Shown: positions 10,703 through 64,000, counted from the first letter of the stretch. The stretch is 64,000 nt of DNA from Chloroflexota bacterium (GCA_034666565.1 JAXDLN010000091.1:3968-67967); one strand, 5' to 3'. The notes: generated by a model from the sequence alone, not told the origin. Program-made: numbers and translations.

Positions 10703-11026
10703 ATCGGTAAGCAGCCGCCCGACGCCTGTCCGTATGCGCGTCCTTTTCCCAAGGACTTTGCCGACTGCACTGCGTTTCAGCCGGTCGAGTTCAATGCGGC
10801 CTCGGATGATGCCCCGCCGCAGATGCTGACGTCGTGTGCGAATCTCGCGATCGGCACGTTTTGGGACGACAGCAAGCACCATTACGCTCGGTGCGGACTC
10901 GGCGACAGCACCGCCAGGTTGGCGCGGCTCAAGGCTCAGGTCGAGGTGAGCGATGCGTACGTCCTCCAGCATGCCGATCGCGACGACGAGATTCTCGCGC
11001 CACCGCCGATCATGCCGCCTCGCTAA
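10703..11026 (+). CDS. Small Cys-containing hypothetical protein, probable ATC start
   Basis: Frame open from 10670 to TAA at 11024-11026: (I)GKQPPDACPYARPFPKDFADCTAFQP...TSCANL...HYARCG. The first ATG (10823) would remove two of the four Cys. Confidence 0.5.
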   Translation: MGKQPPDACPYARPFPKDFADCTAFQPVEFNAASDDAPPQMLTSCANLAIGTFWDDSKHHYARCGLGDSTARLARLKAQVEVSDAYVLQHADRDDEILAPPPIMPPR

Positions 11027-11044
11027 CGAGAGCGTCAGGGCAAC

Positions 11045-11068
11045 AAAAAGGCGGCCACGGCGGCCGCC
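11045..11068 (-). terminator. Rho-independent terminator of the 11092-11667 gene
   Basis: Stem GGCGGCC/GGCCGCC (11050-11068) followed on the minus strand by TTTTT (AAAAA at 11045-11049). Confidence 0.7.
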
Positions 11069-11091
11069 ATCTGTTCAGGTCGAAACGTCAA

Positions 11092-11667
11092 TCAGCCACA
11101 GGTCACGTTGAAGTGCATGCTGTTGGGATTCGGAGTGAATGTGGCATTTCCGGTCGAGTTGACGTGGGCGTTCAAGTGAAGCGTCAGCGAGGATCCATCG
11201 GATCCGGTCATCTGCAGATTCACCGTAAACGACATCGATGCATTCTTGTTGTTGAATTCGCCACCAAACCATTGCACCACCTGGCCCGCGAAGGACGGCT
11301 TCGTCAGGTCTGGCGTGAAACTGATCGGATTCCCATTGCTGTCAAGGGTGACAGTGCCGAGAACCAGCGTGGACGCTCCCTCCATGGTGCTCGTGAACCA
11401 GGCGTCCTGCGCTTTGTTGACGTTGATATGCTGCACGCCATTGCCCGTTGAGTCGATGAGCGCCCACTCGTTGAAGACCCCACCGCAGCCCGGAAGCGGA
11501 CTGCCCAGGAAGGTGAGCTGCCCGAAATGGTCGGTCTCCTGACAGGGCCCGAGGCCCGGACCACAGGTCGGGATCGGCGGGGGACCCGTTCCGGATGCCG
11601 CGCTAACCGGTAGCGCCAGCGTCCCGAACAACGCGATGCAGATGGCAAGGACAAACAGTCTTCTCAT
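11092..11667 (-). CDS. Secreted hypothetical protein
   Basis: Signal peptide MRRLFVLAICIALFGTLALPVSA. The mature part is beta-rich with Cys residues. AGGAGG SD. Confidence 0.75.
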   Translation of the reverse strand: MRRLFVLAICIALFGTLALPVSAASGTGPPPIPTCGPGLGPCQETDHFGQLTFLGSPLPGCGGVFNEWALIDSTGNGVQHINVNKAQDAWFTSTMEGASTLVLGTVTLDSNGNPISFTPDLTKPSFAGQVVQWFGGEFNNKNASMSFTVNLQMTGSDGSSLTLHLNAHVNSTGNATFTPNPNSMHFNVTCG

Positions 11668-11718
11668 TGGCCCCTCCTGGGAACCCCCGCTGATCGATGG
11701 ACAGCGACCCGCGGGTCT

Positions 11719-11747
11719 ACCCTAGAGTCCGTTTAACGCAAAGTCAA
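11719..11747 (-). promoter_or_regulatory. Sigma70-type promoter
   Basis: TTGACT-N17-TAGGGT on the minus strand upstream of 11667. Confidence 0.55.
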
Positions 11748-11803
11748 GTCGTTTGCGACTGCAAGTGATCGTCGGACAGTCTCTAAGATTGCTGTGAGAC
11801 CAG

Positions 11804-13975
11804 ATGCCGGTTACGCATGGCGCGCCGACGATCACCATCAACCACGACCACCAGTTCCTGGTCAGCGACCCCAACGCCACCATGGTGCCCACCGGCGGCG
11901 TCGGTTTCTTTGCCCGGGACACCCGCTTCGTCTCGAGCTACTCGGTGACGATCAATGGCCGGCAGCCGCTGCTGCTGGACGCCAGCAACATCGACCACTT
12001 TTCGGCGCGTCACGAGTTCACGACCCCTGAGCTCCCGCTCGCTGGGACCCGGGACGGCGCTGAGCACGACGTCATCCTCGAGGAGCGCGCGATCGGCTTC
12101 CGCCTCGACCGCACCATTTTCGAGGGGGTCCACGAGGACTATGACCTGGTCAGCTTCGCGCGCCACCCGGTCCGCCTGATCCTGGAGGTCGCGATCGAGT
12201 CGGACTTCGCCGATATCTTCGACGTGCGCCGACGGCGGCTGGTGCGACGTGGCGACCTGCAGAGCTCGTGGCACGAGAAAGCCGGCGAGCTACGCACGAC
12301 CTACACCAACGGCTCCTTCAAGCGGGAGCTGATCGTCGGCGTCGAGCGCGAGGACTCGCACCCGGAGTTCGCCAACGGCCGCCTGCAGTTCGTCATCAAT
12401 CTCGCGCCCAAGCAGACCTGGCATACCTGTGTCGAGTGGTTGCCCGTGATCGATGGCAAGCGCGCCCGCGTGCTCCCCTGCTATGCGATCCAGAACCGCG
12501 ACCCGGAAATGTCCACCGGGGTGCTGCCGGCAGTTGCCGTCGCCACCAGCCATTCCACACTGCCGCGCATCTGGCGCCAGGCGGTCGCCGACATGGAGGC
12601 GCTGCGGATGTCGGACTTCGCGGTGCGGCGCGGCGTTTATGTTCCCGCCGCCGGCATCCCCTGGTACGTGACGCTGTTCGGTCGGGACTCGCTGGTCGTC
12701 GCGATGGAGAGTATCAGCGGTTTTCCCGAGTTCGCCTTCGGCGCGTTGGACCGGCTGGCGCGAGTGCAGGCGACCGACGACAACGCCGCCCAGGACAAAG
12801 AACCCGGCAAGATCCCGCACGAGGTGCGCTACGGCGAGCTGGCAAGCCTCGGGCTTCTCCCCTTCACGCCCTACTACGGCACGGCGGATGCCACCCTTCT
12901 CTTCTTGATCGTGTTTTCCTACGCGTACCAGTGGTCCGGCGACCGCGAGATCCTGGACCGCTACCGGCCGAACGCGGAGGCCGCGCTCAAATGGATGCTC
13001 GAGTACGGAGATCGCGACAAGGACGGCTTCCAGGAATACAAGACGCGCTCGCCGGTTGGCTTCTACAACCAGGGCTGGAAAGATTCGCACGATGCCGTCC
13101 AGCACGAGGATGGCACCATCGCGTCGCTACCGATCGCACTGTGCGAGCTCCAGGGCTATGCCTTCGACGCACTGCTGCGGATGTCCGAGGCCTTTGCGAT
13201 CTGGGGCGATGTCGAGCGGTCGGCAGAGCTGCGACAGCGGGCGATCCGGCTGTATGAAGACTTCAACGAGCGGTTCTGGTGGGAGGAAGAAGGCACCTAC
13301 TATTTGGGCCTCGACGGGCGCAAGCGGCCGATCCGATCGGTGGCATCGAACGCCGGTCATTGTCTGGCCAGCGGCATCGTCCCACCGGATCGCGCCAATC
13401 GCGTGGTCGATCGCCTGATGCAGCCCGATATGTGGAGCGGTTGGGGCATCCGCACGCTCTCGACCAAGCACCCTTCCTACAATCCGTACTCCTATCACCT
13501 GGGATCGGTCTGGCCGCACGATAACGCCACCATCGCCGGCGGGTTTCGGCGGGCCGGCCGGCACACCGAAGCCCAGCAGCTCGCCGAGGGCATCTTTGCC
13601 GCTGCCGAGCGCTTCGACCATTACAGCTTGCCCGAGCTATGGGCGGGGGTGGCTCGCGAGCCGGGCGCGTACCCGGTCCCTTACCTTGGGACGAACGTCC
13701 CGCAGGCCTGGGCCGCCGCTGCCGTGTTTCGGCTGGTCGCGATCCTCTGCGGGATTCACACGGCCGGCCACGACAAGGTCATCTACATCAATCCTGACCT
13801 GCCCGACTGGCTCCCCAACCTCACGCTGACGAATCTCCGCGCCGGCAAGGGCGCGGTTGAGTTGCGCCTCAAGCGTGACGAGGTTGAAGTGCTCAGCAAC
13901 ACAACCGGATTCGAAATCGTTCACGGGCGCATTCCGCGACCGCCGCTCCAGGAAACGCCGCTCGCCCGCGGCTAG
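11804..13975 (+). CDS. Amylo-alpha-1,6-glucosidase / glycogen debranching enzyme family protein
   Basis: AGIPWYVTLFGRDSL, EPGKIPHE, YYGTADAT, NQGWKDS, YHLGSVWPHD and PQAWAAA motifs of the GDE C-terminal domain, plus an N-terminal GDE domain. Confidence 0.88.
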   Translation: MPVTHGAPTITINHDHQFLVSDPNATMVPTGGVGFFARDTRFVSSYSVTINGRQPLLLDASNIDHFSARHEFTTPELPLAGTRDGAEHDVILEERAIGFRLDRTIFEGVHEDYDLVSFARHPVRLILEVAIESDFADIFDVRRRRLVRRGDLQSSWHEKAGELRTTYTNGSFKRELIVGVEREDSHPEFANGRLQFVINLAPKQTWHTCVEWLPVIDGKRARVLPCYAIQNRDPEMSTGVLPAVAVATSHSTLPRIWRQAVADMEALRMSDFAVRRGVYVPAAGIPWYVTLFGRDSLVVAMESISGFPEFAFGALDRLARVQATDDNAAQDKEPGKIPHEVRYGELASLGLLPFTPYYGTADATLLFLIVFSYAYQWSGDREILDRYRPNAEAALKWMLEYGDRDKDGFQEYKTRSPVGFYNQGWKDSHDAVQHEDGTIASLPIALCELQGYAFDALLRMSEAFAIWGDVERSAELRQRAIRLYEDFNERFWWEEEGTYYLGLDGRKRPIRSVASNAGHCLASGIVPPDRANRVVDRLMQPDMWSGWGIRTLSTKHPSYNPYSYHLGSVWPHDNATIAGGFRRAGRHTEAQQLAEGIFAAAERFDHYSLPELWAGVAREPGAYPVPYLGTNVPQAWAAAAVFRLVAILCGIHTAGHDKVIYINPDLPDWLPNLTLTNLRAGKGAVELRLKRDEVEVLSNTTGFEIVHGRIPRPPLQETPLARG

Positions 13976-14160
13976 GGAGAACCGAGCGAGCCGGTGACGT
14001 TGCAGAACATGTTCTTGACGGTGTTGCCCATGATGATGAGGATCACGAGGACCACGATGACCACCAGCACCATGATCAGCGCATATTCCACCATCGCCTG
14101 ACCTCGTCGGTCAGCGCGACTCAACCCGGCGACTAGCTGGTCGACACCTGCGGTGATCAT
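13972..14160 (-). CDS. flp: Flp-family type IVb pilin
   Basis: Prepilin cleavage motif RRG|QAMVEYAL (E+5, Y+6) followed by a hydrophobic helix. 62 aa, GGAG SD. Confidence 0.88.
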   Translation of the reverse strand: MITAGVDQLVAGLSRADRRGQAMVEYALIMVLVVIVVLVILIIMGNTVKNMFCNVTGSLGSP

Positions 14161-14296
14161 CCACGACTCCTGCGGCCCACATTGCTCCAGCCACGTTGCG
14201 AAATGCCTTATCCGTACGGGTACCGTCGTTTCGTCGCCCAGGCGTTATTCCGAGTCGGGGCCAGTTGACCAAGCTGTGACGAGCCCTACGGGCGCC

Positions 14297-14325
14297 GTGA
14301 CAAGGGTGGGGGCGTTCGATAGAGT
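14297..14325 (+). promoter_or_regulatory. Sigma70-type promoter for pheA (leaderless geometry)
   Basis: GTGACA-N17-TAGAGT, with 6 nt to the ATC at 14332. Confidence 0.55.
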
Positions 14326-14331
14326 TCGACC

Positions 14332-15237
14332 ATCGCAGGCGAGCTCACGATCGGATACCAGGGGGAACCGGGTGCCTACTCCGAAGAGGCGCTCCACGCC
14401 ACGTTTCCCTTAGCGATCCCGCAGGCCTTCCGCACGCTTCGGCATGCCTTTCATCGGGTCGCGGACCAGTCGGTCGATTTCGCACTGGTCCCGGTCGAGA
14501 ACTCGCAGGGAGGCAGCGTGCTCGAGACCTACGATCTCCTGCTCGAGTATCGAGCGCTCGTGGTTGCCGAGGTCGCGCTGCAGGTTGACCACTGCCTGCT
14601 GGCCGTGCCGGGCACCCGCCGCGATCAACTGAAGCGAGTCCTCTCCCATCCGCAGGCGCTGGCGCAATGCGAAGCGTTCATCGTGCGAGAACACCTGGAA
14701 CCCGTCCCCGCGTATGACACGGCTGGAGCAGCAAAGCAGATCCAGCTGGAGGGCCGTCACGACCAGGCGGCGATCGCCGGTCGGCGCGCGGCCGAGCTCT
14801 ACGACCTTGAAATCCTGGCCGAACGAATCCAGACAGTGCAGGAGAACATCACCCGCTTCTTCTTGATCACGCGACGGGGACCCCGCCGCCCCAAGCCACC
14901 GGCGATCAGGCGACCGCGCTACGGGAAGAAGACCTCGCTGGTGTGCGCCGTCGACAACGAGCCGGGCGCGCTCTTTCGGTTGCTGAAGTGCTTCGAGGAG
15001 TTCGGTGTCAACCTGACGAAGTTGGAGTCGCGGCCACGGCGCGACCCACCCTGGGAATACCTCTTCTACCTGGACCTCGACGGCGGCCGATCGGAAAAGC
15101 CGGTGGCAGCCGCCTTGCGCGCGGCGCGCCGCGCCACCACCTTTCTGCAGGTGCTCGGAACGTACACCCGCGCGCTTCCCCCGTCGGCTCCGCCGAAACG
15201 TCGCAGCCGGAAACGACGCTCGCCCGCCGAACCCTAG
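14332..15237 (+). CDS. pheA: Prephenate dehydratase (PDT + ACT); start apparently ATC 14332
   Basis: In-frame upstream of the tracked ORF lie IGYQGEPGAYSEEA and VPVENSQGGSV. The ORF also has SHPQALAQC, catalytic NITRF and ACT NLTKLESRP. In-frame TAG at 14320-14322. Confidence 0.92.
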   Translation: MAGELTIGYQGEPGAYSEEALHATFPLAIPQAFRTLRHAFHRVADQSVDFALVPVENSQGGSVLETYDLLLEYRALVVAEVALQVDHCLLAVPGTRRDQLKRVLSHPQALAQCEAFIVREHLEPVPAYDTAGAAKQIQLEGRHDQAAIAGRRAAELYDLEILAERIQTVQENITRFFLITRRGPRRPKPPAIRRPRYGKKTSLVCAVDNEPGALFRLLKCFEEFGVNLTKLESRPRRDPPWEYLFYLDLDGGRSEKPVAAALRAARRATTFLQVLGTYTRALPPSAPPKRRSRKRRSPAEP

Positions 15238-15241
15238 CGCT

Positions 15242-15619
15242 TTACCGATGTTCCGAGGACCAGTAGCGCTGGTCCGGCGTCAACGGTTCGAGCCATTCCG
15301 TGACGAAGTTCGCGTTGTGATGAATCGCCGTCAGCTGGAGACGATCGCTGCCCGAGTTGATGAAACGGTGGGCGGCCCCTGCCGGAGCAACGACGATGTC
15401 CCCCGCCCTCGCCTGCACCTGAGATTCCTCCACGAAGAAGAAGCCGACCCCGGCGTGAACCACGAAGATCTCTTCGTAAGGGTGAAGATGCAGGGCCGGG
15501 CCATGGCCCGTTTCGACGTTCACCAGGATTAACGTCAGCCCTGCGCCGTAGACCTTGCCCTCGAATTCGCGGGAGCTGTTGCTTCCCGGGAGTTGGTTCG
15601 CGTGAATCAGCGGATCCAT
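15242..15619 (-). CDS. Cupin-domain protein
   Basis: Cupin motifs LHLHPYEEIF and GDIVVAPAGAAHRF. Confidence 0.85.
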   Translation of the reverse strand: MDPLIHANQLPGSNSSREFEGKVYGAGLTLILVNVETGHGPALHLHPYEEIFVVHAGVGFFFVEESQVQARAGDIVVAPAGAAHRFINSGSDRLQLTAIHHNANFVTEWLEPLTPDQRYWSSEHR

Positions 15620-15634
15620 TTCGATGGCGTGATG

Positions 15635-39331: not shown

Positions 39332-40391
39332 TCGTCTCTTTCAGCCAATCGGCCATCAGCGGCCGGTACTTGTACGAAATGTTGTTGCAGACGTGCGTCC
39401 CGTCCGGGTACATCACCAGCGTCGCGTTGGGGGCCTCCCGCGCGATCCGTTCGGCGTCCGCCGGCGGAAATAGGCCGTCCTTGGCGCCGTGGATGACGAG
39501 CAGCGGCTGGGTGACCTTGTCGAGGACGCCCTCGAGATTGAGCGTGTAGGCCTTGCGCCTGGCTTCGGCCTCATCCGCGGACTTTGTATAGAAGATGTAC
39601 CCGCCCCTGGTCAGGGGATTGAGATTGTCCCAGCAGTCGCCGAGGTTGTACGGCCCGGACAGTCCCACCACCGCGCGCAACCGCTTTTCGTAGGCAGCCG
39701 CGCGCGGGCCGTAGATGGCGCCCATGCTGATCCCCATCAGGCCGATCCGGTTGAGGTCGACGCCGACATCGCGTCGCTCCAGCTCATCGATCACCGGGGT
39801 GATCACCGATTCCCAGTTGACCCGGATCGGGAAGTGCACCGAGTTCTCGGATTGGCCCGGGCCGTCGATCGTCAGGGTCGCCATCCCGCGTCGCAGGAAC
39901 TCCTCCTCGATGAGAAAGAGCTCTTCCTTGGATGAGTCGAGTCCCGGGACGAGAAGCACGAGTGGCGCGCGGTCGATCTCTCGGGGGCGGCGGAGGTTAC
40001 CGGGAATGACATGACCCTCGAACGGGATCTCGACGCGCTCCGCCGGCGGATCGAGGTGCGGCAGCGTCTTTCGGTACACGGCGACCGACCGGTCGCGCAG
40101 CTCGGCGTGCTGGCGCAGGTCTTCGAACCAGAGGAACTTTCCGAGGTGATAGCACCAGGAAGCCCGCTGATAGCCGGCAGTCGCGGAGACGCTTCGGCTG
40201 TGTTCCTCAGCCTCACGCCCGAGCGCTTCGTGGACCTCGCCCACCGCCCGCCAGTTGGGTCCCCAGTCCTTCCAGTCGGTTGTCTTCCCCACCGTCCGGT
40301 CGAAGTCGTTGACGTCGATACCGTTGGCGACGAAGCGCGCTCGCCAGTGATGCGCCGCGACCTGAACGCGGTTGCCCGTTTCTACGCTCAT
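39324..40391 (-). CDS. Alpha/beta hydrolase, 2,6-dihydroxypseudooxynicotine hydrolase-like
   Basis: PGLDSSKEE, IDGPGQ, nucleophile GISMG, HGAKD, GTHVCNN. Family assignment from recall of DHPON hydrolase motifs. Confidence 0.85.
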   Translation of the reverse strand: MSVETGNRVQVAAHHWRARFVANGIDVNDFDRTVGKTTDWKDWGPNWRAVGEVHEALGREAEEHSRSVSATAGYQRASWCYHLGKFLWFEDLRQHAELRDRSVAVYRKTLPHLDPPAERVEIPFEGHVIPGNLRRPREIDRAPLVLLVPGLDSSKEELFLIEEEFLRRGMATLTIDGPGQSENSVHFPIRVNWESVITPVIDELERRDVGVDLNRIGLMGISMGAIYGPRAAAYEKRLRAVVGLSGPYNLGDCWDNLNPLTRGGYIFYTKSADEAEARRKAYTLNLEGVLDKVTQPLLVIHGAKDGLFPPADAERIAREAPNATLVMYPDGTHVCNNISYKYRPLMADWLKETIG

Positions 40392-41977
40392 CTGACGTTC
40401 TCCTTTAGTTGGATCGCCTCGCTAAGACTGGACCCGAGGTCCCCAAGCAGGATTGCGGCGCAGTTGCGGCCCGGAAGGCCCGAGACCGATCCGCCGGGGT
40501 GGGTGCAGGCGCCGGTTTGGTAGAGGCCCTCCACAGGCGTCCGATACGTCGACCAGCCTTCGACCGGACGGAAATGGCCACTCTGGTCCGGGGTGCTGGC
40601 CCCACCGTGGCACGATCCGTGCCAGTTGGCCGGGTTGCGGCGCTCCATATCGAGCGGGCTGTGCACATTTCGTCCGAGCACGATGCGGTCCGACAGGTTG
40701 GTCGTCAACGGCGCCAACGCCTCGAACAGCCGATCGGCCACCAGGTCTTTGACCTGGTCCCAGTGCGCCGGCCCTTCCACGAGTTCGTAAGGCAGAAAGC
40801 TGATCAGCTTGAAGGTGTGCTTGCCGGCGGGCGCTCGGGAAGGGTCGACGACGGTGGGCGTGATCGCCAGGAACACCGGATCCTCGAGGTCCAGCCGTCC
40901 GCTCCGGTAGGCCTGCAGCATTCGCTGCAGCGACCCGAGCGATTCGAGCCCGCCCATGGTAACGCTTTCCATCGCACCGCTCTCGGTGCGATACCGGGGC
41001 GCCTCACTCAACGCGTAGTGGGCGGCGAACATCGACAGGCTCGGTTTCCAACGGTCAATACCGGCGCGGAACTGGGGCGTGAGGTTCTCCTCGCCGACGA
41101 TGCCGGGCAGCTGGGCGATGTGAATGGTCGAGACCACCGCCCTGGAAGCGGCGTAGGTCGAGCCGTCGGCGGCCTCGACGCCGGTCGCACGTCCACCCTC
41201 GACCACGATCCTTGTAACCGGCTTCGATGTCAGGATGGTCCCGCCGTTTTCTTCGATAATCGCGGCGAGCGCGAGCGGCAAGCGGAGCGAGCCACCCTCG
41301 GGCAGGATCCAGGAAAAGCGCTGCCGGCCCGCGACCAGCGAAAACGCCAGCAGCCCGGTCTCGGGCTCATCCAGTGGATGCAGGGTCATGAACGCGATCC
41401 AGGCGAAGAAGGCGCGGACGTGATCATCGGCAAAGCGTTCACTGATGATGTCGAGCGCCGTCGAGCGTCGAATCTCCAGCATGCGTTGGCCGAGCTTGCT
41501 TCCCGCGGTGCGGGCGGCGATCTCCTGTGGCGGCCGCGGAGGATTCTCGCGCTCGTCGTTGATGATCGGCGCCATCGCCTGCCAGTCGTTGAGCAGCTCG
41601 CGGTATGCCTGCGCATCAGGCGGCGAGAAGCGGGCCAGCTCGGCGCAGGTGCGGTCCAGGTCGCGCCACATCGTGATGCTGCGGCCGTCGCGGAACGGCA
41701 TGGTGAAGACCGGGTCCGGGTACAGGTAGCGCAGCCCATACCGGTCGAGCTGCAACTCGTTGTTGCGCATCAGCGGGTTGCTCTGGATCAGGTTGTGCGC
41801 GGTAGAGCAGGGATCGTGGATGAAGCCGGGCAAGGTCAGCTCTTCGCAAGTGGTGTCGCCGCCGATGCGCGGCGCCCCCTCGAGGACCAGCACTTTGAAG
41901 CCCGCCTTCGCCGCGTAAGCGGCGGTCAGCAGGCTGTTATGGCCGGCGCCGGCGACCACGATGTCCCAGTCGCTCAG
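40388..41977 (-). CDS. FAD-dependent oxidoreductase, COG1233 (phytoene desaturase/PYROXD2-like); start apparently CTG 41977
   Basis: (M)SDWDIVVAGAGHNSL, GGDTT, HDPCSTAH, P.GGS..L, SPLDMER.N, GLYQTGACTHPGGSVSGLPGRN. Confidence 0.9.
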   Translation of the reverse strand: MSDWDIVVAGAGHNSLLTAAYAAKAGFKVLVLEGAPRIGGDTTCEELTLPGFIHDPCSTAHNLIQSNPLMRNNELQLDRYGLRYLYPDPVFTMPFRDGRSITMWRDLDRTCAELARFSPPDAQAYRELLNDWQAMAPIINDERENPPRPPQEIAARTAGSKLGQRMLEIRRSTALDIISERFADDHVRAFFAWIAFMTLHPLDEPETGLLAFSLVAGRQRFSWILPEGGSLRLPLALAAIIEENGGTILTSKPVTRIVVEGGRATGVEAADGSTYAASRAVVSTIHIAQLPGIVGEENLTPQFRAGIDRWKPSLSMFAAHYALSEAPRYRTESGAMESVTMGGLESLGSLQRMLQAYRSGRLDLEDPVFLAITPTVVDPSRAPAGKHTFKLISFLPYELVEGPAHWDQVKDLVADRLFEALAPLTTNLSDRIVLGRNVHSPLDMERRNPANWHGSCHGGASTPDQSGHFRPVEGWSTYRTPVEGLYQTGACTHPGGSVSGLPGRNCAAILLGDLGSSLSEAIQLKENVR

Positions 41978-45353: not shown

Positions 45354-45376
45354 GCGGCGATCAAGGCGTCAAGGGA

Positions 45377-45402
45377 GGGACGGCGCTGCGTGTCACCGTC
45401 CC
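45377..45402 (-). other. Stem-loop between SBP and permease (likely mRNA-stabilising or attenuating)
   Basis: GGGACGG (45377-45383) and CCGTCCC (45396-45402). Confidence 0.45.
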
Positions 45403-45415
45403 CACGACTCTCTCG

Positions 45416-46642
45416 TTAAGGCCAGTTCGGCTTCGGGTACTCGGGCTTGGCGGCGGCCACGCTCGACGGGTAGACAAAGATCGCTTGCGCACCCTGCCAC
45501 TGCTCGAGGTAGACACCGACGCCACCGTGCGGCTTCCCCACGCTGTCGAACGACATCGGCCCCTGGATCGTCTGGTACGTGCCCGAATGCAAGGCGGTGA
45601 TCAGGGCTTTGTTGTCGATACTGTTTGCCTTCTGCGCCGCCTGATCGACCACTTGCCCCACACTGTAGGCCTCGGCGGCGTCGGCGCTGATGTCGCCGAA
45701 CGCGCCGCCATACTTGGCCACGAATTCGACGGTGAATTTTTCGTTGCCGTAGGCCTTGGCGCTCGAGGTCCAACCGGCGGGGACCATGATCCCTTCCGTA
45801 TTCTTGGCGCCGACTTTGTCGGCGAAGTCCTTACCCTGGTCTGGCCCGGTCGTCTCGATGATGGACTTTGGATTGTAGTGCTGCTGCTGGAAGACTTTGA
45901 CGAAGGCCACCGCATCCGGTTCCTGGGTGCCGAGGATCGCGACGTCCGCCTTGGAGTTGACCACCTGGAGCGCCAGCGCGTCCCATGACGTGGCCTCGGC
46001 CGGATACACCTTGTACGACGCGGTCGTGATGCCGCCGGCTTCGAGCAGGCTCTTGGCTTTGTCGATCTGCGGCTGCGTGAAGGGATCATCCTCCGTCGCA
46101 TAGGCGGCTGTCTTCGGTCGCTGGTCGCTGGGTAGCGAGAGCAGGTACTTGGTGTAGCTCACGAGGTTGTCTTCGACCGCGGCGGGCTGTACGAAAAAGA
46201 TCGAATGCAGGCCCTGGGCGAAGACCTTCGGTCCACCGCCGGCCGGCTCCGGGAACGCGTAGCCGTAGCGATCGGTGACGGTTGAGGCCGGGATGGTGAG
46301 CAGCGAACTGAACGGACCGAAGACCAGCGCCACCTTGTCCTGCGTGATCAGGGTCTGGTAGTTGGTGACGACCTGTTGTGTGCTGCTGGCGTCATCAACG
46401 TATTTCATGGTCACCTGGTGACCGAGGAGTCCACCCTTGGCATTGATGTCCTGCGCCCACAGGTCGTACCCCTGCTGAAGCGCCTTTCCGTCGCCGGAGA
46501 AGTCGCCGCTGAGCGAGAGCGACACACCGATCGTGATCGGTGCCGCCGGCGCCGGCGTGCCCCCCGCATTCGTCGATCCGGTGCCACACGCCGAAAGTAC
46601 CAGGGCGAATCCCGCCACGATCATCGACACGGGTTTGCGCAT
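45416..46642 (-). CDS. LivK/HAAT-family substrate-binding lipoprotein (start ATG 46642)
   Basis: Lipobox LSAC, ITIGVSLSLSG, INAKGGLLG, VDDAS, GPFSS. GGAAGGGAG SD. Confidence 0.92.
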   Translation of the reverse strand: MRKPVSMIVAGFALVLSACGTGSTNAGGTPAPAAPITIGVSLSLSGDFSGDGKALQQGYDLWAQDINAKGGLLGHQVTMKYVDDASSTQQVVTNYQTLITQDKVALVFGPFSSLLTIPASTVTDRYGYAFPEPAGGGPKVFAQGLHSIFFVQPAAVEDNLVSYTKYLLSLPSDQRPKTAAYATEDDPFTQPQIDKAKSLLEAGGITTASYKVYPAEATSWDALALQVVNSKADVAILGTQEPDAVAFVKVFQQQHYNPKSIIETTGPDQGKDFADKVGAKNTEGIMVPAGWTSSAKAYGNEKFTVEFVAKYGGAFGDISADAAEAYSVGQVVDQAAQKANSIDNKALITALHSGTYQTIQGPMSFDSVGKPHGGVGVYLEQWQGAQAIFVYPSSVAAAKPEYPKPNWP

Positions 46643-47846: not shown

Positions 47847-47858
47847 ACAAACGTTTGC
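47847..47858. promoter_or_regulatory. LacI-type operator 2
   Basis: ACAAACGTTTGC upstream of the dehydrogenase. Confidence 0.7.
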
Positions 47859-48850: not shown

Positions 48851-48935
48851 TGATCGCTTCCGAAGCGGAGCGGCGCTGCTTCCACGGTCTGCGCCAGCTT
48901 CGGCATCGCCGCCCCTCCCCCTACTGTACGGCCTT

Positions 48936-48947
48936 GCAAACGTTTGC
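48936..48947. promoter_or_regulatory. LacI-type operator 3
   Basis: Perfect palindrome GCAAACGTTTGC. Confidence 0.75.
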
Positions 48948-49009
48948 GCCAGAGCGGACGGGTTAACAAGGGGTTAACGTGTGGTCGGGCGGTGAAACCG
49001 CCCGGGCGT

Positions 49010-50086
49010 ATGCAGCCAAGGAACGGTGGGGCGGTCGGGCGCGAAGGGCCTGGGGCGCGGACGATCATGACCCTCGCGGATGTTGCACGCGCCGCGGGTG
49101 TGCACTCCTCAACCGTCTCCCGCGCCCTCGATCCCGTCTCATGTGCACAGGTAAACCTCGAGACCCGACAACGTGTTCAGGCGCTCGCGAAACGGATGGG
49201 CTACCAGAAAGACATGGTGGCCAGCGGGTTGAAACGCGGCCGAACCCACACCGTCGCCGTGGTCGCCGGCGACCTTGGGAACCCGAACCTCGCTCCGGTC
49301 CTGCGCGGCATCGCCAGCGGGCTCGAGCTGGCGGGGCTGATGACACTGATCTCGGAGACGCAATTCGACTCGGAGCGCCTCGAGCGAATCCTGAATCATC
49401 TCGTGAGCCGCCGGGTCGACGCGATCATCATGACCGCCGCGCGGCCGCGCGATGCGCCACGGCTCCGCTGGATCCGTCGTCAGGGCATTCCGCTCGTGCT
49501 GGCGATTCAGACCGTTCCCGGTATCCGCTTGCCCGCGTGCACCAATGACGACCACCTCGGGGGTGTGCTGGCCGCGCGCCATCTCCTCTCGCTCGGGCAT
49601 CGGCGGCTCGCCCAACTTCGCGGACCGATGGAGTTCAGTTCCTGCTTCCTTCGCGCTCAGGGGTTCAGCAAGACGGTCGCCGCCGCCGGCGCTGAGGAAG
49701 TCGTGGTCAAGTCGACGGCCCTGTGGGGGACCCCAGAATTGGGCGCGTCCCTCATGCGCGAGCTCCTCGACCAGAAAGGGGTTCGGCCGACCGGCATCTT
49801 CGCGCACCACGACCTGACAGCCTTCGGCGCGCTGACGGCGGCCGAGGAGCGCGGCTTGACCTGTCCTTTGGACCTGTCGATCGTCGGCTACCACAATTTG
49901 CCGCACCATGATCGCATCGCACCGCCGCTTACTTCGATCGGTCAGCCCCGCGAGGAGCTTGGTCGGACCGCGGCCGAGATCCTCATCGCGGTGCTCACCA
50001 GGCCTGGCCGGACGCCGGCGCCCCGCCTGGTACGGCCGTCGCTGGTGGTGCGGGAGTCGACCGGGCCCCCGCCCAGGGCGTATTAA
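49010..50086 (+). CDS. LacI-family regulator 2
   Basis: MQPR extension, TLADVARAAGVHSSTVSRAL, YQKDMVASGLKRGRTHT. Confidence 0.92.
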   Translation: MQPRNGGAVGREGPGARTIMTLADVARAAGVHSSTVSRALDPVSCAQVNLETRQRVQALAKRMGYQKDMVASGLKRGRTHTVAVVAGDLGNPNLAPVLRGIASGLELAGLMTLISETQFDSERLERILNHLVSRRVDAIIMTAARPRDAPRLRWIRRQGIPLVLAIQTVPGIRLPACTNDDHLGGVLAARHLLSLGHRRLAQLRGPMEFSSCFLRAQGFSKTVAAAGAEEVVVKSTALWGTPELGASLMRELLDQKGVRPTGIFAHHDLTAFGALTAAEERGLTCPLDLSIVGYHNLPHHDRIAPPLTSIGQPREELGRTAAEILIAVLTRPGRTPAPRLVRPSLVVRESTGPPPRAY

Positions 50087-50124: not shown

Positions 50125-50186
50125 GGTAGACCCGGTCGACTCACAAGGGGTTAACGTGTGGTCGGGCGGTAACACCGCCTGGGCGA

Positions 50187-51263
50187 ATGCAGCGAAGGGG
50201 CGGCGGGGCGGGCGGGCGCGAAGGGCCGGGGGAGCGGACGATCGTGACCCTCGAGGATGTCGCGCGGGCAGCGGGCGTGCACTACTCGACCGTTTCGCGG
50301 GCCCTCGATCCCGACACCGCCCGACAGGTCAACGTCGTGACCCGAAAACGGGTCGCGGCCGTCGCCAAACGAATGGGCTACCAGAAAGACATGGTGGCCA
50401 GTGGCCTGAAGCGAGGGCGGACCCACACGGTGGCCGTGGTCGTCGGCGACCTTGGGAATCCAAACATTGGTCCGCTCCTCCGCGGGATCTCGAACCGGCT
50501 CGAGGCCGCCGGACTGATGCCGCTCATCGTCGAGACGCAGAATGACCCGGCACGCCTGGAGCGCATCGTCAACCACCTGCTCAGCCGCCGGGTCGACGCC
50601 TTCATCTTGACCGCCGCGCGACTCGGTGACGGGCCGAAGCTGCGCCGGATCCGGCGGCACGGCATCCCGGTCGTGCTGGCGGTTCAATCGGTCCCGGGGA
50701 TCCGTTTGCCGGCCATTACCAACGACGACATCCTGGGCGGCGCGCTGGCCGCCCAACATCTCCTCGCCCTCGGGCATCGGCGGGTTGCCCAACTGCGCGG
50801 GCCGCCCGACATTTACTCCTGCTTGCAGCGCGCCCAGGGGTTCAGCCAGACGATCGCGGCGGCGGGCGCGACGGAAGTCGTGCTCCGGTCGACAGCGCCC
50901 ATGGGGACAGCCGAAGAGGGCCATCACCTCATGCGGCAGCTCCTCGACAGCAAGCGACCCCTGCCGACCGGCATCTTCGCCCATCACGACCTGATGGCCT
51001 TCGGGGCATTGTCCGCGGCGGAGGAACGCGGGCTGGCCTGTCCGAGGGACTTTTCGATGGTCGGCTATAACGATTTGCCGAACGTGGAGCGCATGGTGCC
51101 GCCGCTCACCTCGATCCGCCTCCCGCGCGAGGAACTTGGCGGTCTCGCCGCGGAGGTCATGGTCAAAATGCTTTCCTCGGCGGACCGGCCACCCGCGTCA
51201 CGCAAACTCGCCCCTACCCTGGTGGTCCGCCGGTCGACCGGACCGCCCCGCGAATCGCGGTAA
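50187..51263 (+). CDS. LacI-family regulator 3 (tandem paralog of regulator 2)
   Basis: MQRR extension, TLEDVARAAGVHYSTVSRAL, YQKDMVASGLKRGRTHT. Confidence 0.92.
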   Translation: MQRRGGGAGGREGPGERTIVTLEDVARAAGVHYSTVSRALDPDTARQVNVVTRKRVAAVAKRMGYQKDMVASGLKRGRTHTVAVVVGDLGNPNIGPLLRGISNRLEAAGLMPLIVETQNDPARLERIVNHLLSRRVDAFILTAARLGDGPKLRRIRRHGIPVVLAVQSVPGIRLPAITNDDILGGALAAQHLLALGHRRVAQLRGPPDIYSCLQRAQGFSQTIAAAGATEVVLRSTAPMGTAEEGHHLMRQLLDSKRPLPTGIFAHHDLMAFGALSAAEERGLACPRDFSMVGYNDLPNVERMVPPLTSIRLPREELGGLAAEVMVKMLSSADRPPASRKLAPTLVVRRSTGPPRESR

Positions 51264-51267
51264 CCGG

Positions 51268-52272: not shown

Positions 52273-53289
52273 CTACTCCTCGGATGCGCCCGAGGTGAAT
52301 TTCGCCAACAGCAAGGCGGCGAGGATGATGCCCCCAAATGCCGCATTGATCCAGAAATCGGGAATCTGGGAGAGGGTGAGGATGTTGGAAATCACGCCCA
52401 GCAGCAGGACCCCGGTGAGGGCGCCGAACATCGTGCCCTGGCCGCCGTTCAGCCGGATGCCGCCGATGACGGCGGCAGCGAATACGGTGAAGATCATGTT
52501 CTGCCCCTGGCCGGAGAGCACCGAATCGAGGCGGCCGGTCAACAGCAGCCCGGCCAGCGCCGCCAGCGCGCCGCCGACGATGTAGACGATCCAGACGACC
52601 CGCTCGACCCGGATGCCGGACGCGCGAGCCGCCTGTGGGTTCCCCCCGACGGCATAAATGGCGCGACCGAAACTGTGATATCGGAGGAAGAACCCGACGA
52701 CGAGGAAGAGAAAGCCGGCAATCCAGACCGACGCCGGAACCGCCAGCCAGCTGGCGGAGCCGAGATAGACGAGCGGCGCCGGCAGATCGAACATCGTCCG
52801 CCCATTGCTGAGGCCGACCGTCACGCCGCGCAGCAGGATGAGCATCGCGAGCGTGACCATGAATGCGTTCAATTTCACGCGCGCGACCAGGAAGCCGTTG
52901 ATGGCCCCGACCAGCATCCCGGTAAGGAACAGGATCGCCACGGCGATGTAGGCGTTGAGGCCCAATCCGGAGCCGCCCGTCAACTTGGTGGTGACAAGCC
53001 AGCCGGCGATCATGGGCGCAACGCCGACGATCGACTCGAGCGAGAGATCGAACTTGCCGGCTAGCAGGATGAGTGTTTCGCCGATCACGAGGATCGCCAG
53101 CTCGGATGACTGCTGGAGGATGTTGATCAGGTTCTGCTGAGTTAGGAACGCGTCGTTGACGATGGTGCCGGCGATCAAGGCGACGATGATCGCGGGAACC
53201 AGGGCAATCTCATGCAGCAGCCGCGCATTCATACGCTGCCGGATGGCACCCGCCGATTTCTTCAGCGCCGCCCGCTCAGTGGTGGCGAT
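52273..53289 (-). CDS. Sugar (RbsC-like) ABC permease; start ATC 53289 or ATG 53232
   Basis: FDLSLES, FMVTLAMLILLRG, FGRAIYAVGGN..AA, AAAVIGG..L.GG.G. Confidence 0.92.
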   Translation of the reverse strand: MATTERAALKKSAGAIRQRMNARLLHEIALVPAIIVALIAGTIVNDAFLTQQNLINILQQSSELAILVIGETLILLAGKFDLSLESIVGVAPMIAGWLVTTKLTGGSGLGLNAYIAVAILFLTGMLVGAINGFLVARVKLNAFMVTLAMLILLRGVTVGLSNGRTMFDLPAPLVYLGSASWLAVPASVWIAGFLFLVVGFFLRYHSFGRAIYAVGGNPQAARASGIRVERVVWIVYIVGGALAALAGLLLTGRLDSVLSGQGQNMIFTVFAAAVIGGIRLNGGQGTMFGALTGVLLLGVISNILTLSQIPDFWINAAFGGIILAALLLAKFTSGASEE

Positions 53290-54796
53290 GGGCTACCCCT
53301 TCCATGGCCCCGATCAGCTCAGCGTCGTACCATCCGCGGGCAAACTCCCGCACAACGCGGCCGCCGAACATCACGATCACCCGATCACAGATGGCCAGCT
53401 CGTCCAACTCGTCCGAGACGAGGAGCACCGCCGTCCCGGCCTGGGTGATCGTCTCGAGCAGCAAGCGCTTGGAGGCCACGTCGACCCCCGCCGTGGGACT
53501 GACCAGCACGAGCGCCTGGGGGTTGGAAGCCACGGCGCGGCCGAACACCATCTTTTGCTGATTGCCGCCCGAGAGCTCGACGGGCCGCTGTTGCGGGCTG
53601 GAGACCAGCACATGCATCCGCTCGATCAGCGCTAGCGCCCGGCGGCCGCGTCGCTGATGGTCGATCGACCCCCACGGCCCCAGGTCGTCGAGCACGGTCA
53701 TCGTGATGTTCTCTTCCACCGAAAGATCCGGACAGAACCCTTGTGTCTGGCGATCCCCCGGAAGGAACCCGAGGCCGCGGTCGATGGCGCCGTCCACCCG
53801 TCCGGCTGGGACGGCTCGACCGTTCAACAGCACGCGGCCGCCGTCCGGTTTGACCAGACCAATGATCACGTCCGCCAGCTGGGCCTTGCCGCTAGCCGCC
53901 AGCCCGGCCAGGCCGACGCATTCGCCCTGGTAGACGTCGAGGTCGATTTTCGAGAACCACCGCTGCCAGGTGAGGTCCCGTACCGCCAGCACCGGTTGGC
54001 CGGTGTCGCCCGGTGCCGCATCACGGGTTGCCCGCGGCGCAATCGCCCGGGTGGCGGCGGCCTCCCCCACCATGGCATCGACGATCTGCTCCTTTCCCAG
54101 CCCTTTGACCGCTGCGTTGAGGACCACGTGACCGTCGCGAAGGATCGTGACCGAATCGCAGACCTCGTAGATCTCGTCCAGGTGATGCGAGATGTACAGG
54201 AAGCTGACGCCGGCGTCGTGCAGGTGTCGCATCTGCCTGAACAAGAGGTCGATCTCGGCGGCTTCGAGCTGGGCCGTCGGCTCGTCGAGGATGATGAAGC
54301 GCGAGCCCAAACGCAGGGCGCGAACGATCTCGACCAACTGGCGCTGCCCGGGCGGTAGCTCGGATGCAAGGGCGTCGACGTCCGCCTCGATGCCCCACTC
54401 ATCGAGAAGACGCCGCCCCTCGGCTCGGATCGCCCGCCAGCTCAAGAAGCCGGACCGTCGCTGGGGATATGCGTTGAGAAAGATGTTCTCCCCGACCGTC
54501 ATCGTAAGGATGACGGTGGAACGTTGATAGACGCAGCCGACCAGCTCGCGCCACTGCTCTCGGGCGGTGACCGGGGGCGCCGGCCGGCCGAGAAAGCGGA
54601 CGTCGCCGGTGTCCGGGCTGATCAACCCGGTAAGGATCCCGACGAGGGTCGATTTGCCGGCTCCATTCCGGCCCACCAGCGCCCGCGTCTCCCCCACCGG
54701 CACAACCAGGGAGACGTCGCGAAGCGCCTCGGTTGGACCGAAGCGCTTCGATACGCCTGACGCCGCGACGATCGGAGCTGCGGAGATGAGCGACAA
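53276..54796 (-). CDS. Sugar ABC ATPase (RbsA-like, tandem NBD)
   Basis: GRNGAGKST, ILDEPTA, ISHHLDEI, LSGGNQQK. The second Walker B reads LVSPTAGVD. Confidence 0.92.
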   Translation of the reverse strand: MSLISAAPIVAASGVSKRFGPTEALRDVSLVVPVGETRALVGRNGAGKSTLVGILTGLISPDTGDVRFLGRPAPPVTAREQWRELVGCVYQRSTVILTMTVGENIFLNAYPQRRSGFLSWRAIRAEGRRLLDEWGIEADVDALASELPPGQRQLVEIVRALRLGSRFIILDEPTAQLEAAEIDLLFRQMRHLHDAGVSFLYISHHLDEIYEVCDSVTILRDGHVVLNAAVKGLGKEQIVDAMVGEAAATRAIAPRATRDAAPGDTGQPVLAVRDLTWQRWFSKIDLDVYQGECVGLAGLAASGKAQLADVIIGLVKPDGGRVLLNGRAVPAGRVDGAIDRGLGFLPGDRQTQGFCPDLSVEENITMTVLDDLGPWGSIDHQRRGRRALALIERMHVLVSSPQQRPVELSGGNQQKMVFGRAVASNPQALVLVSPTAGVDVASKRLLLETITQAGTAVLLVSDELDELAICDRVIVMFGGRVVREFARGWYDAELIGAMEGVAHRHH

Positions 54797-60853: not shown

Positions 60854-61012
60854 GGCGGCCCGCCGTTGACCGGGCTCCAGCACATCACGAACCGCTGCGG
60901 CGCTTCCTCGCACGGATCTCCCAGACCCTCTTCCTTAATCGGGATGTTGACCACCCGATTGACTGCCGTGCCCCTTGCCGGAACGGAATGCTAGCGCAGA
61001 GTTGGCAATCTG

Positions 61013-61024
61013 TCAAACGTTTGC
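61013..61024. promoter_or_regulatory. LacI-type operator 5
   Basis: TCAAACGTTTGC between the divergent ABC ATPase and LacI-4. Confidence 0.7.
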
Positions 61025-61103
61025 CATACTGCGGAGGCATGGTCGGGAATGGCTCAGGAATGGGAAGGGTTACCTTGTGATCAAGCAGCTGAAGAGCGAA
61101 GCG

Positions 61104-62168: not shown

Positions 62169-62175
62169 CTCGCCG

Positions 62176-63663
62176 TCAGGCGTTCTGCCGTTGCTCTAGA
62201 TAGCCGCGCACCTCGTCATATTCCGTTTCCGGCTTCCGCTTCAGGCCGAAGACATCCAGCTCCCAGCCGCACTTGGCCGCTAGGTAGTCCCGCGACGCCT
62301 CCGCGAGCGACCGCACGCGACCGAGGTCGACGCCCAGCATTGCTCCGCGCCACTTCTTGAGCTCGCCGCCGATCCACACGATGTCGACGTTCTTCGTGTC
62401 CGCCCCCAGGACCACCGTTCCGATCGCGTTGTTGAGCGGCAGGTTGTTGACGTCCTCGGCGCGGATCGCCACGATGTCCGCCTCCTTGCCGGGTGTGAGC
62501 GAACCGACTTTGTCGCCCAGCCCGATATGGCGCGCCCCCTGGATGGTGGCGAACTCGAGAACGTCGCGGTTCGTCACCCAGGCGGGCGGCGTCTCGCCAC
62601 GGTAGCGGAGCGCCGCCGATTGCATCCGCTGGGTGGCGAGGACGCAGCGCATCTGGCTGAACATGTCGGTGGCCAGGCTGATCTCGACATCGACGCTAAG
62701 GCTGGGGCGGATCCCGAAATCGAGCGCCTTCTGGATCGGCGGCGTCCCGCCGGACAGACCGATCTGCTCGTCGGAGGTGGGCGCCAGCGTCACCCCGATG
62801 CCGGCGTCCTTGAAGTGTTGCCAGACGGCGTCGGCCATGTCGGTGGCATGGATGACCGTGACGTCGGGGGCGAGGAGGCCTCCGCGGCCCAGCTCCTCCA
62901 TCTCCCTCGAGGAGGCCGGACCGAGGACACCGTCGAAGGTGATCGACAGCCCGTGGGCGCGGGCAAACTTGATCAGCTCGGACGCCGGCCGGGGCCGCCG
63001 GAAATCGATAGCGAGCCGCACCGTCGTGAGTGCCGAGGTGAATTGATCGCGCAGGCGGGTGAGGTCCTCGGGCCAGTGCTCGGCCCACGCCCCCGCGTTG
63101 GGCGGAGCCGATGCATGCACCGCTCGAATCCCCGCCTCCCGGTAGGCCTTGAACACCGCGTCCGAGTGGGCAGGGGTCCGGGTATTGTGCGAGAAATCGA
63201 GGATCGAGGTAACGCCGGAGTCGATCGCGCCAAGCATGCTGACCAGGTCGCCCGCGTACATGTCCTCGGGCCGGTAGTGGAGCGCGATGCCGCCGTGGGT
63301 GGTCGCCATATAGCTGGGCAGGTCGGCATCGACGATCAGGCGCCGGAACTGGTTCTGCCAGCAGTGGCGGTGGCCGTCGACGAGTCCCGGGATCAGGATC
63401 ATGCCCCCCATCTCGACCATCAGCGCCTGGCCGTCGCGGGCCGCGGCGCTGAGGTCCTCGCCGACCGCCTTGATGGTCGAGCCCTCGATCAGCACGTCGC
63501 CCTGCGCCAGGTCTTTGATCTCGGGATCCATGCTGATGACAACCGCGCCCCGCAGCAGCACCTGGCGCCGCGGGTCGGGGCGCGTCAGGCGTTCGCCAAG
63601 CTGCTGCCACTCGGCGTCGGGGACTTCGTGATACCGACGGGTCGCGGTTCCGGCCTTGTGCAT
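62176..63663 (-). CDS. Metal-dependent amidohydrolase (AtzA/MTA-SAH deaminase-like; start ATG 63663)
   Basis: PGLVDGHRHCWQ (HxH), VIHAT, LSVDVE, ATIQGA, GSLTPGKEAD. GAGGAGAGGGAG SD. Confidence 0.9.
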   Translation of the reverse strand: MHKAGTATRRYHEVPDAEWQQLGERLTRPDPRRQVLLRGAVVISMDPEIKDLAQGDVLIEGSTIKAVGEDLSAAARDGQALMVEMGGMILIPGLVDGHRHCWQNQFRRLIVDADLPSYMATTHGGIALHYRPEDMYAGDLVSMLGAIDSGVTSILDFSHNTRTPAHSDAVFKAYREAGIRAVHASAPPNAGAWAEHWPEDLTRLRDQFTSALTTVRLAIDFRRPRPASELIKFARAHGLSITFDGVLGPASSREMEELGRGGLLAPDVTVIHATDMADAVWQHFKDAGIGVTLAPTSDEQIGLSGGTPPIQKALDFGIRPSLSVDVEISLATDMFSQMRCVLATQRMQSAALRYRGETPPAWVTNRDVLEFATIQGARHIGLGDKVGSLTPGKEADIVAIRAEDVNNLPLNNAIGTVVLGADTKNVDIVWIGGELKKWRGAMLGVDLGRVRSLAEASRDYLAAKCGWELDVFGLKRKPETEYDEVRGYLEQRQNA

Positions 63664-63710
63664 CTCCCTCTCCTCTTTACCGAGCGCGGTTCCGTCCTGT
63701 GGTATTTTAA

Positions 63711-63722
63711 GCAAACGTTTGC
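63711..63722. promoter_or_regulatory. LacI-type operator 6
   Basis: Perfect palindrome GCAAACGTTTGC between the divergent amidohydrolase and dehydrogenase. Confidence 0.75.
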
Positions 63723-63764
63723 CGCGGTGCGCGGCGTTTCGACCACGCAGAGGAGGGAGCGGCG

Positions 63765-64000
63765 ATCACCGAGTCCTTGACCCACAAGCTCGGCTGGATC
63801 GGCACCGGCCGGATGGGCAGTGCCATGGTCTCGCGCTTGCTCGAGCGCGGCTGTGAGGTGTCGATCTACAACCGGACGCGCGGCAAAACCGAAGGCTTCC
63901 GCGAGCAGGGGGCCCGCATCGTGGATGCGCCGGCCGACCTCGCCGATCGCGACATCGTCTTTACCTCCGTCTCCCGTTCGGAGGACTTCCGGGACGTCCT
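63765..64000 (+). CDS. Second beta-hydroxyacid dehydrogenase paralog, 5' part only (runs off window); start ATC 63765 or TTG 63777
   Basis: LGWIGTGRMG.AM..RLLERG.EV..YNRTR.K, and DLADRDIVFTSV, closely matching the 47885 gene. Confidence 0.85.
   Translation, partial: MTESLTHKLGWIGTGRMGSAMVSRLLERGCEVSIYNRTRGKTEGFREQGARIVDAPADLADRDIVFTSVSRSEDFRDV

Follow-up and report, generated by a model that had tools for sequence, protein, structure and literature searches.

Can a soil bacterium begin its proteins at ATC or CTG, and do so in several genes of one region? The question is raised by a 64,000-nucleotide (nt) stretch of metagenomic DNA from a Chloroflexota bacterium (the window; positions are counted from its first letter), for which a preliminary description proposed five such starts: in pheA (ATC 14332), a gene for a Cys-rich protein (ATC 10703), a sugar permease gene (ATC 53289), a flavin adenine dinucleotide (FAD)-dependent oxidoreductase gene (CTG 41977) and a dehydrogenase gene (ATC 63765). 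We propose that pheA, the Cys-rich protein and the sugar permease start at AUC and the FAD oxidoreductase probably at CUG, a reading to which we assign a probability of roughly 0.65 on comparative sequence evidence. All five codons are present at these coordinates, as are the contexts described for them, namely a Shine-Dalgarno (SD) sequence, a stop/start overlap or a promoter whose predicted +1 falls on the codon. When orthologs are aligned, the codons of pheA, the Cys-rich gene, the permease and the FAD oxidoreductase match canonical starts and hold against relatives, whereas the dehydrogenase ATC does not.

Source and scope of the analysis

The window (G+C 66%) is part of contig Ga0467064_0000001, 1.28 Mb long, from soil metagenome 3300044832 of the Joint Genome Institute (JGI). 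Its nearest relatives are assemblies labelled Candidatus Dormibacterota or, in older entries, 'Chloroflexi CF_', and the organism is an uncultured soil bacterium. The evidence comprised the window, about 270 fetched loci (L numbers below), protein databases and contigs of public sequencing runs. Permease orthologs were taken from a metagenome scan; a query with the ABC ATPase against species-representative genomes gave 0 Dormibacterota orthologs. Among public RNA runs none holding the locus was found, and a literature search on Dormibacterota start codons returned no paper. Coding frames in the window have a third-position G+C of 0.72-0.90. Chance alone will readily place an ATC or CTG in frame ahead of a canonical start; it is the comparison with relatives that makes four of the five codons non-trivial, since by alignment these lie at, or within one codon of, the start position of their orthologs.

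The start of pheA

The elements of this locus are as follows.

14297..14325, + strand: promoter-like GTGACA-17 nt-TAGAGT, with 6 nt between its -10 hexamer and ATC; predicted +1 at 14332
14332..15237, + strand: pheA, prephenate dehydratase (PDT) with PDT and ACT domains; predicted start ATC 14332-14334

The pheA product matches the Pfam PDT profile PF00800 (E 4e-57) over positions 1-179 of 181 and the ACT profile PF01842 (E 1e-7). Its frame carries a TAG at 14320-14322, three codons 5' of the ATC, and then reads AGT TCG ACC ATC GCA GGC GAG CTC ACG ATC GGA TAC CAG GGG GAA CCG. Position 1 of the PDT profile is the 7th residue past the ATC, with no canonical start before it; the first ATG, GTG or TTG after the TAG is GTG 14518, and initiation there would cost 56 of the 181 profile positions, including the conserved GYQGEPGAYSE.

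Across 12 lineages the pheA start codon is ATC in 8 (the window, L001-L005, L008 and L270) and ATG in 4, the latter being more distant Dormibacterota in which ATG occupies the same codon or lies two codons later. In a maximum-likelihood tree the ATC lineages separate from the ATG lineages with 100/99 support, so that one change suffices. The codon that follows ATC varies only synonymously (GCA, GCC, GCT or GCG) and the six bases before it vary freely, a pattern that argues for a reading frame beginning at the ATC. Relative to the window, the ratio of nonsynonymous to synonymous substitution rates (dN/dS) is 0.04-0.15 overall and 0.04-0.09 within the ATC clade, with dS up to 1.2, and at this conserved locus no other prephenate dehydratase was seen.

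Upstream of the gene, TAGAGT is kept in 12 of 12 orthologous loci and the remaining DNA is not conserved. The hexamer stands 6 nt before the start in all ATC lineages and 8-13 nt before the ATG in the other four. A consensus scan of the 4 kb between 10500 and 14500 found GTGACA-17-TAGAGT as the sole sigma-70-type match; because it ends 6 nt before the ATC, the predicted +1 falls on the A of that codon. No SD sequence was found upstream of the ATC, and a riboswitch and leader-RNA search gave no Rfam match upstream of either pheA or the Cys-rich gene. Collectively, these alignments indicate that translation of pheA very probably initiates at ATC 14332, on an mRNA that may be leaderless given its predicted transcription start. 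The -10 spacing and the lack of an SD sequence are those of leaderless mRNAs; the predicted 5'-terminal codon is AUC, not the AUG (or, in Actinomycetota, GUG) expected of them.

The start of the Cys-rich gene

A second ATC in a similar setting heads a short gene.

10666..10695, + strand: TTGACA (10666-10671), 18-nt spacer and weak -10 TCGCAT (10690-10695), 7 nt before ATC
10703..11026, + strand: gene for a Cys-rich protein of 107 amino acids, no Pfam family; candidate start ATC 10703-10705

The open reading frame is conserved at 80% amino acid identity in L001 and L003 and at 43% (E 9e-27) in L008, where the frame on the opposite strand has no match; by this comparison it is a genuine gene under purifying selection. 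No canonical start is available to it in six lineages (the window, L001, L003, L267(-L269), L270 and L271(-L272)), all of which read ...GAA G(T/C)A ATC G.., and L001 and L270 have a TAA three codons 5' of the ATC. L008 has ATG at the ATC codon itself. In other relatives the called start is one codon upstream, as M, V or L (MIGK, VIGK, LIGK), and in some it is the M of MEVIGK, which, three codons upstream, corresponds to ATA 10694 of the window. In codons 1-40, from the ATC to the first downstream ATG, the proportion of nonsynonymous differences (pN, 0.06-0.13) is well under that of synonymous differences (pS, 0.18-0.38), which indicates that these codons are translated. ATC is, in the aligned sequences, the only near-cognate codon common to all lineages without a canonical start. 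ATA 10694 was considered as a start and rejected: it is possible in the window, as a close relative (P0127) is called from M there, but in L001, L003 and L270 it falls out of frame or gives way to TAA, which leaves ATC as the sole shared candidate.

TTGACA and its spacing are kept in L003, L008 and L267-L272, and transcription may begin at the ATC. The layout TTGACA-18-TCGCAT-7 fits a leaderless gene, but its -10 is weak.

Both pheA and this gene bear out the N-terminal mis-annotation that the preliminary description expected. The JGI call of pheA in L270 (9396-10175) has 259 amino acids, and pheA calls run to 239-259 instead of 301. Among the 36 database clusters of the Cys-rich protein, 20 hold truncated calls of 67-84 amino acids that begin at internal codons (P0132-P0153), and the NCBI gene call for L003 begins at the TTG of the TTGACA box.

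A segment of about 750 bp (11029-11780) between the Cys-rich gene and a glycogen-debranching-like gene holds a minus-strand gene (11092-11667) with a signal-peptide-like N-terminus and no Pfam match. It is absent from L001, L003 and L270 and present in L267 and L271, which by this comparison is a presence/absence polymorphism.

The start of the sugar permease gene

On the minus strand, the third ATC lies within the end of an upstream gene.

52273..53289, - strand: ABC sugar permease, BPD_transp_2; probable start ATC 53289-53287; JGI start ATG 53232
53296..53303, - strand: Shine-Dalgarno-like GGAAGGGG, 6 nt 5' of ATC 53289, within the MEGV codons of the upstream ATPase gene

The permease frame is closed by a TAG (53295-53293) two codons 5' of the ATC. 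In the closest orthologs, L233 and L234 (96% amino acid identity), the ATC is kept, the codon at ATG 53232 of the window is CTG, and a GTG absent from the window stands at codon 8. L235 (88% identity) has an ATG aligned exactly to ATC 53289 and no downstream ATG. The 19 codons between the ATC and ATG 53232 are conserved as protein, with one 3-nt in-frame indel, and dN/dS is 0.05-0.13. The same layout of SD, spacer and start is found again in Conexibacter L138, where the start is GTG, and in L235, where it is ATG, the MEGV codons being conserved. We consider it probable, on these alignments, that the permease initiates at ATC 53289.

The start of the FAD oxidoreductase gene

The fourth codon differs from the others in being a CTG and in its distribution.

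40388..41977, - strand: FAD-dependent oxidoreductase, amine-oxidase/DAO type; CTG 41977-41975 at the orthologous start position
41957..41959, - strand: GTG, possible fallback start of the FAD gene; first canonical start, six codons 3' of CTG

This CTG overlaps by two bases, TG, the stop codon TGA (41976-41974) that ends the upstream LivF-like ATPase gene, forming CTGA, and a GGAG (41988-41985) lies 7 nt 5' of it. In the start column of 32 relatives we find ATG(A) in 22 and GTG(A) in 10, with C or T in 0. The variable base falls in the third position of the upstream gene's final Ala or Gly codon, where any change is synonymous; its restriction to A or G despite G+C-rich third positions points to selection for ATG or GTG at the FAD start. 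The CTG is, on this distribution, a derived, recent allele specific to this population.

Position 1 of the DAO profile (Pfam) is the residue D four codons past the CTG. A protein begun at GTG 41959 would read M-V-A-G-A-G and lack two residues of strand beta-1. The Val codon at this position varies among relatives (GTG, GTC, ATC or ATT), which argues that GTG 41959 is not a conserved start. With dN/dS of 0.10-0.17 the gene shows no relaxation. We lean slightly towards initiation at CTG 41977, as the alignments suggest. The preliminary description had stated that conserved N-terminal motifs of both pheA and the FAD enzyme would be lost from a canonical start; the statement is borne out strongly for pheA and only weakly for the FAD enzyme.

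The start of the dehydrogenase gene

The fifth proposal did not survive comparison.

63777..63779, + strand: TTG start of a 3-hydroxyisobutyrate-dehydrogenase-like gene; the gene runs off the window, its remainder being taken from L152
63765..63767, + strand: ATC proposed earlier as the dehydrogenase start; not supported

All 10 orthologous contigs (L257-L266, 86-92% amino acid identity), found via a protein database, carry the TTG of position 63777 unchanged, and the JGI call, of 305 amino acids, begins there. ATC 63765 is kept only in the group of at least 90% identity; the 86-88% group has AAA, followed by ATC, ACC or ACG, and L262 and L266 lack an ATC altogether. The invariant TTG and the non-conserved ATC argue against the latter as the dehydrogenase start. 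By alignment the gene starts at TTG 63777, an ordinary start. Some use of ATC 63765 is unlikely but keeps a small probability, since the SD sequence GAGGAGGGAG (63750-63759) is spaced 5 nt from it, against 17 nt for the TTG.

Two further features accompany this gene. In L257-L266 its SD sequence is conserved at an unusually long 17-20 nt from the TTG, and stands 5-11 nt from the ATC/AAA position. A perfect palindrome of LacI/PurR operator type, GCAAACGTTTGC, occurs upstream of the dehydrogenase (63711-63722) and at 48936-48947, with its core AAACGTTT additionally at 47849 and 61015. It lies near two LacI-family genes (Pfam LacI, 48854-50083 and 50130-51260), and the same box precedes paralogous dehydrogenases in L095 and L098 and all the orthologs L257-L266.

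Frequency of near-cognate starts

A composition-based list of the window holds 47 genes plus a few that were missed, and 8 more with plausible canonical starts lie in the adjoining 10 kb; near-cognate starts number three or four among about 58 genes. In 23 window genes the first canonical start lies at least 10 codons into the frame. A Pfam scan of 20 of these shows truncation only for pheA and, marginally, the FAD gene, and two further late-start genes showed no domain truncation in Pfam scans. The other gene starts of the window, where orthologs exist, are conserved ATG, GTG or TTG.

A heuristic scan of start columns found 4 CTG among 244 start codons in 9 clean neighbouring Dormibacterota families; elsewhere, including most control clusters, it picks internal Met or Val columns and yields no valid control rate. 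Automated searches for conserved protein sequence 5' of each gene's first canonical start, run in three versions (plain, with masking of upstream genes, and limited to cross-phylum comparisons), were dropped as rate estimates. They flagged 18-59% of Dormibacterota genes against 16-40% in controls, Actinomycetota among them, and were too noisy, being confounded by translations of conserved upstream genes in other frames and by spurious GTG and TTG codons upstream.

Individual CTG candidates were found in relatives. The LivH-like permease gene of L104, L108 and L169 reads TAA-AAAT-CTG, with the CTG 4 nt past the upstream TAA and no canonical start within 6 codons, whereas about 50 relatives have ATG, GTG or TTG behind a hairpin-containing spacer. 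In L093 (~990-1010) CTG occupies the start column of the LivF-like ATPase, against ATG or GTG in L092, L101 and L125, and a TTG follows 4 codons downstream. In the window, the hairpin (GGGGACGGTGA...GCCGTCCC, 45354-45420, - strand) lies between the genes for a substrate-binding protein and the LivH-like permease; it is kept in most relatives and deleted in L104, L108 and L169.

Leaderless geometry also occurs at canonical starts. TACGCT-N6-GTG precedes an ABC-F type ATPase (GTG 22788, + strand; VGFIELVEVGY...), and TACCGT-N7-ATG an ABC ATPase (ATG 8187, - strand; MASPAIELRGV...). Both codons lie well 3' of the first canonical codon of their frames, and as judged from this geometry they are likely to be real and leaderless starts. 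Many window genes have no SD sequence and, together with TANNNT-N6/7 at canonical starts, this suggests that leaderless or short-leader mRNAs are common here. At 15625-15617 on the minus strand, TAACAT-N6-ATC GAA ATG heads a 131-codon gene (15242-15634), where the leaderless geometry points to the ATC; the ATG lies two codons later.

Proposed mechanism

Recurrent near-cognate initiation appears well supported, since three of the ATC sites persist from species to species, in genes subject to purifying selection. We propose that the ordinary initiator tRNA would decode AUC and CUG as formyl-methionine, and that the context of each codon would position the ribosome without the need of a perfect codon. 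For pheA, and probably the Cys-rich gene, the start codon would lie at the predicted 5' end of a leaderless mRNA. In the permease, the ATC would be served by the strong SD sequence 6 nt before it, inside the end of the upstream gene; in the FAD gene, a ribosome terminating at CTGA could restart on the overlapping CTG, and the LivH-like permease gene of L104, L108 and L169 would offer a context of this stop-start kind. The corresponding signals are TAGAGT-N6-ATC, GGAAGGGG-N6-ATC and GGAG-N7-CTG with CTGA, the signal of the Cys-rich gene (TCGCAT-N7) being weak. A conserved N-terminus that no canonical start precedes is found in pheA and the Cys-rich gene, and in part in the permease and FAD genes. 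The ATC starts would be derived from ATG and retained through speciation.

Several points weigh against this proposal. A leaderless AUC start would need behaviour specific to this lineage, because leaderless mRNAs of E. coli and Caulobacter essentially require AUG, near-cognate codons being nearly inactive (PMC8459731). For the permease, starts may turn over among canonical codons, and the ATG 19 codons downstream could be used; the FAD gene could in fact start at its GTG six codons downstream, and CTG appears to be selected against at this junction in the phylum (A or G in 32 of 32). The rate of near-cognate starts, whether taken as 4 of about 58 genes or 4 of 244 start codons, is poorly estimated.

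Alternative explanations

The strongest alternative holds that AUC, and perhaps CUG, is an efficient, regular start in Dormibacterota, whose start-codon repertoire would have been expanded by altered initiation machinery. Possible changes include an initiation factor 3 (IF3) with weak proofreading, a changed anticodon stem or modified C34 of the initiator tRNA, or an additional tRNA of initiator type able to read AUC. The count here, three ATC starts plus one CTG start in about 58 genes, compares with some 0.05% non-canonical starts in well-annotated genomes (10.1101/063800). ATC has been kept over a dS of about 1 without reversion, canonical starts turn over fast around the Cys-rich ATC as if nearly neutral, additional CTG starts occur in relatives, and the mitochondrial case, with its modified tRNA-Met, demonstrates that AUN can initiate on leaderless mRNAs (PMC8459731). 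Against such a change, ATG or GTG is maintained in all 32 relatives at the FAD junction, although C there would leave the upstream protein unchanged; discrimination is therefore not abolished, and most start columns examined are strictly canonical. Within the fetched material, Aragorn found no tRNA-Met(CAU) in the window or any of the fetched loci, and tblastn with an approximate E. coli IF3 query found no match in 267 loci. We regard altered machinery as doubtful; if it holds, Dormibacterota would be the first bacteria known to use AUC as the start of leaderless mRNAs, otherwise a mitochondrial trait.

A weaker claim is that discrimination is relaxed throughout the lineage, which the preliminary description had suggested and which is plausible. 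That ATC has been retained, and that starts turn over around the Cys-rich gene, points to tolerance, and the strict A or G at the FAD junction argues against full relaxation. Our comparisons suggest that this lineage may tolerate near-cognate starts better than model bacteria do.

The near-cognate codons could instead be incidental, the proteins being N-terminally shorter and starting at GTG 14518, ATG 10823, ATG 53232 and GTG 41959. Canonical codons do lie downstream in all four genes, and JGI gene calls use them; a permease begun at ATG 53232 would have 7 residues before its first membrane helix, short but possible, and the loss to the FAD enzyme would be limited to the two beta-1 residues. 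For pheA the cost is the 56 PDT positions given above, and a Cys-rich protein begun at ATG 10823 would leave untranslated the segment GKLPxDACPxxRPFP...C, which is conserved under purifying selection. The permease ATG is missing in the closest orthologs, L233 and L234, and the FAD GTG is not kept as GTG among relatives. We consider this explanation improbable.

Decay of the four genes to pseudogenes, or error in assembly or sequencing, is largely refuted. Start loss is a common first step of gene decay, and the window comes from a metagenome assembly. Independent short-read (Logan) contigs of two to three separate soil runs were nonetheless identical to the window at the three sites compared (pheA, two other soil runs; the FAD gene, the X1 and X2 contigs of two independent run assemblies; the permease, three runs), so that the assembly error which the preliminary description had named as a possible refutation was not found there. 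The same ATC stands in up to 8 separately assembled lineages. The frames are intact, with no frameshifts or internal stops, dN/dS of 0.04-0.29 in the four genes and dS up to 1.2, and, as noted above, the pheA locus showed no second prephenate dehydratase. Equally remote is recoding, by read-through of the TAG into pheA or by a frameshift, at the end of the upstream ATPase gene, into the FAD or permease frame. The latter two starts do overlap the ends of upstream genes, but the DNA preceding the TAG of pheA, like that preceding the Cys-rich gene, is neither conserved nor coding, no conserved slippery motif is present, and relatives have an ordinary ATG or GTG at exactly these codons, where initiation is independent.

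Significance

Near-cognate starts themselves are known; what would be new here, on the evidence of the aligned genes, is near-cognate initiation that is conserved, recurrent and in part placed in a leaderless context. Such starts have been counted in bacteria as single genes per genome, and we count three or four among roughly 58 genes. Two of the ATC starts stand where a leaderless mRNA would begin, a context that requires AUG in model bacteria. Should the pattern extend across Dormibacterota, an uncultured phylum widespread in soil, hundreds of their proteins would be truncated in public assemblies or missing from them. The phylum would then also offer a natural system in which to study how IF3 and initiator tRNA set start-codon stringency, and whether weak starts serve to tune expression.

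Comparison with known systems

In E. coli, infC, which encodes IF3, and pcnB start at AUU, and hda starts at CUG. Like the genes described here, infC and pcnB have a conserved AUN in place of AUG, read as Met by the initiator tRNA in a normal ribosome-binding context, and are missed by gene finders limited to ATG, GTG and TTG. Unlike them, our genes would use AUC rather than AUU, encode metabolic and transport functions rather than fidelity-sensing factors, and lie several together within 64 kb, with no sign of IF3-dependent autoregulation. In well-curated genomes 99.95% of annotated starts are ATG, GTG or TTG (81.8%, 13.8% and 4.35%, respectively), and AUC and CUG initiate in E. coli at about 1-2% of the AUG level, giving an N-terminal Met (10.1101/063800).

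The CTGA junction of the FAD gene resembles the ATGA and GTGA junctions of E. coli at which coupling or re-initiation occurs (PMC2268962): the start shares its TG with the upstream TGA, an SD sequence lies 7 nt upstream, and re-initiation uses the initiator tRNA (PMC2268962). It differs in that its first base is C, in this population only, while the 32 relatives have A or G, and in the GTG that follows 6 codons downstream.

Leaderless mRNAs of Actinomycetota (Mycobacterium, with 5' AUG or GUG) and Caulobacter crescentus share with pheA and, in part, the Cys-rich gene a -10 element 6-7 nt before the start and the lack of an SD sequence (PMC8459731). Their geometry, TANNNT-N6/7-start, is likewise seen at GTG 22788 and ATG 8187, and the difference lies in the 5'-terminal codon, here AUC as judged from the predicted transcription start. 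A parallel for that codon is found in mitochondria, which initiate at AUN on leaderless mRNAs (PMC8459731). Mammalian mitochondria combine leaderless mRNA with AUA, AUU and AUC starts decoded as Met, as we propose for pheA, but do so in an organelle with a single modified tRNA-Met and a specialised mitochondrial IF3, IF3mt (PMC8459731; PMC11775629).

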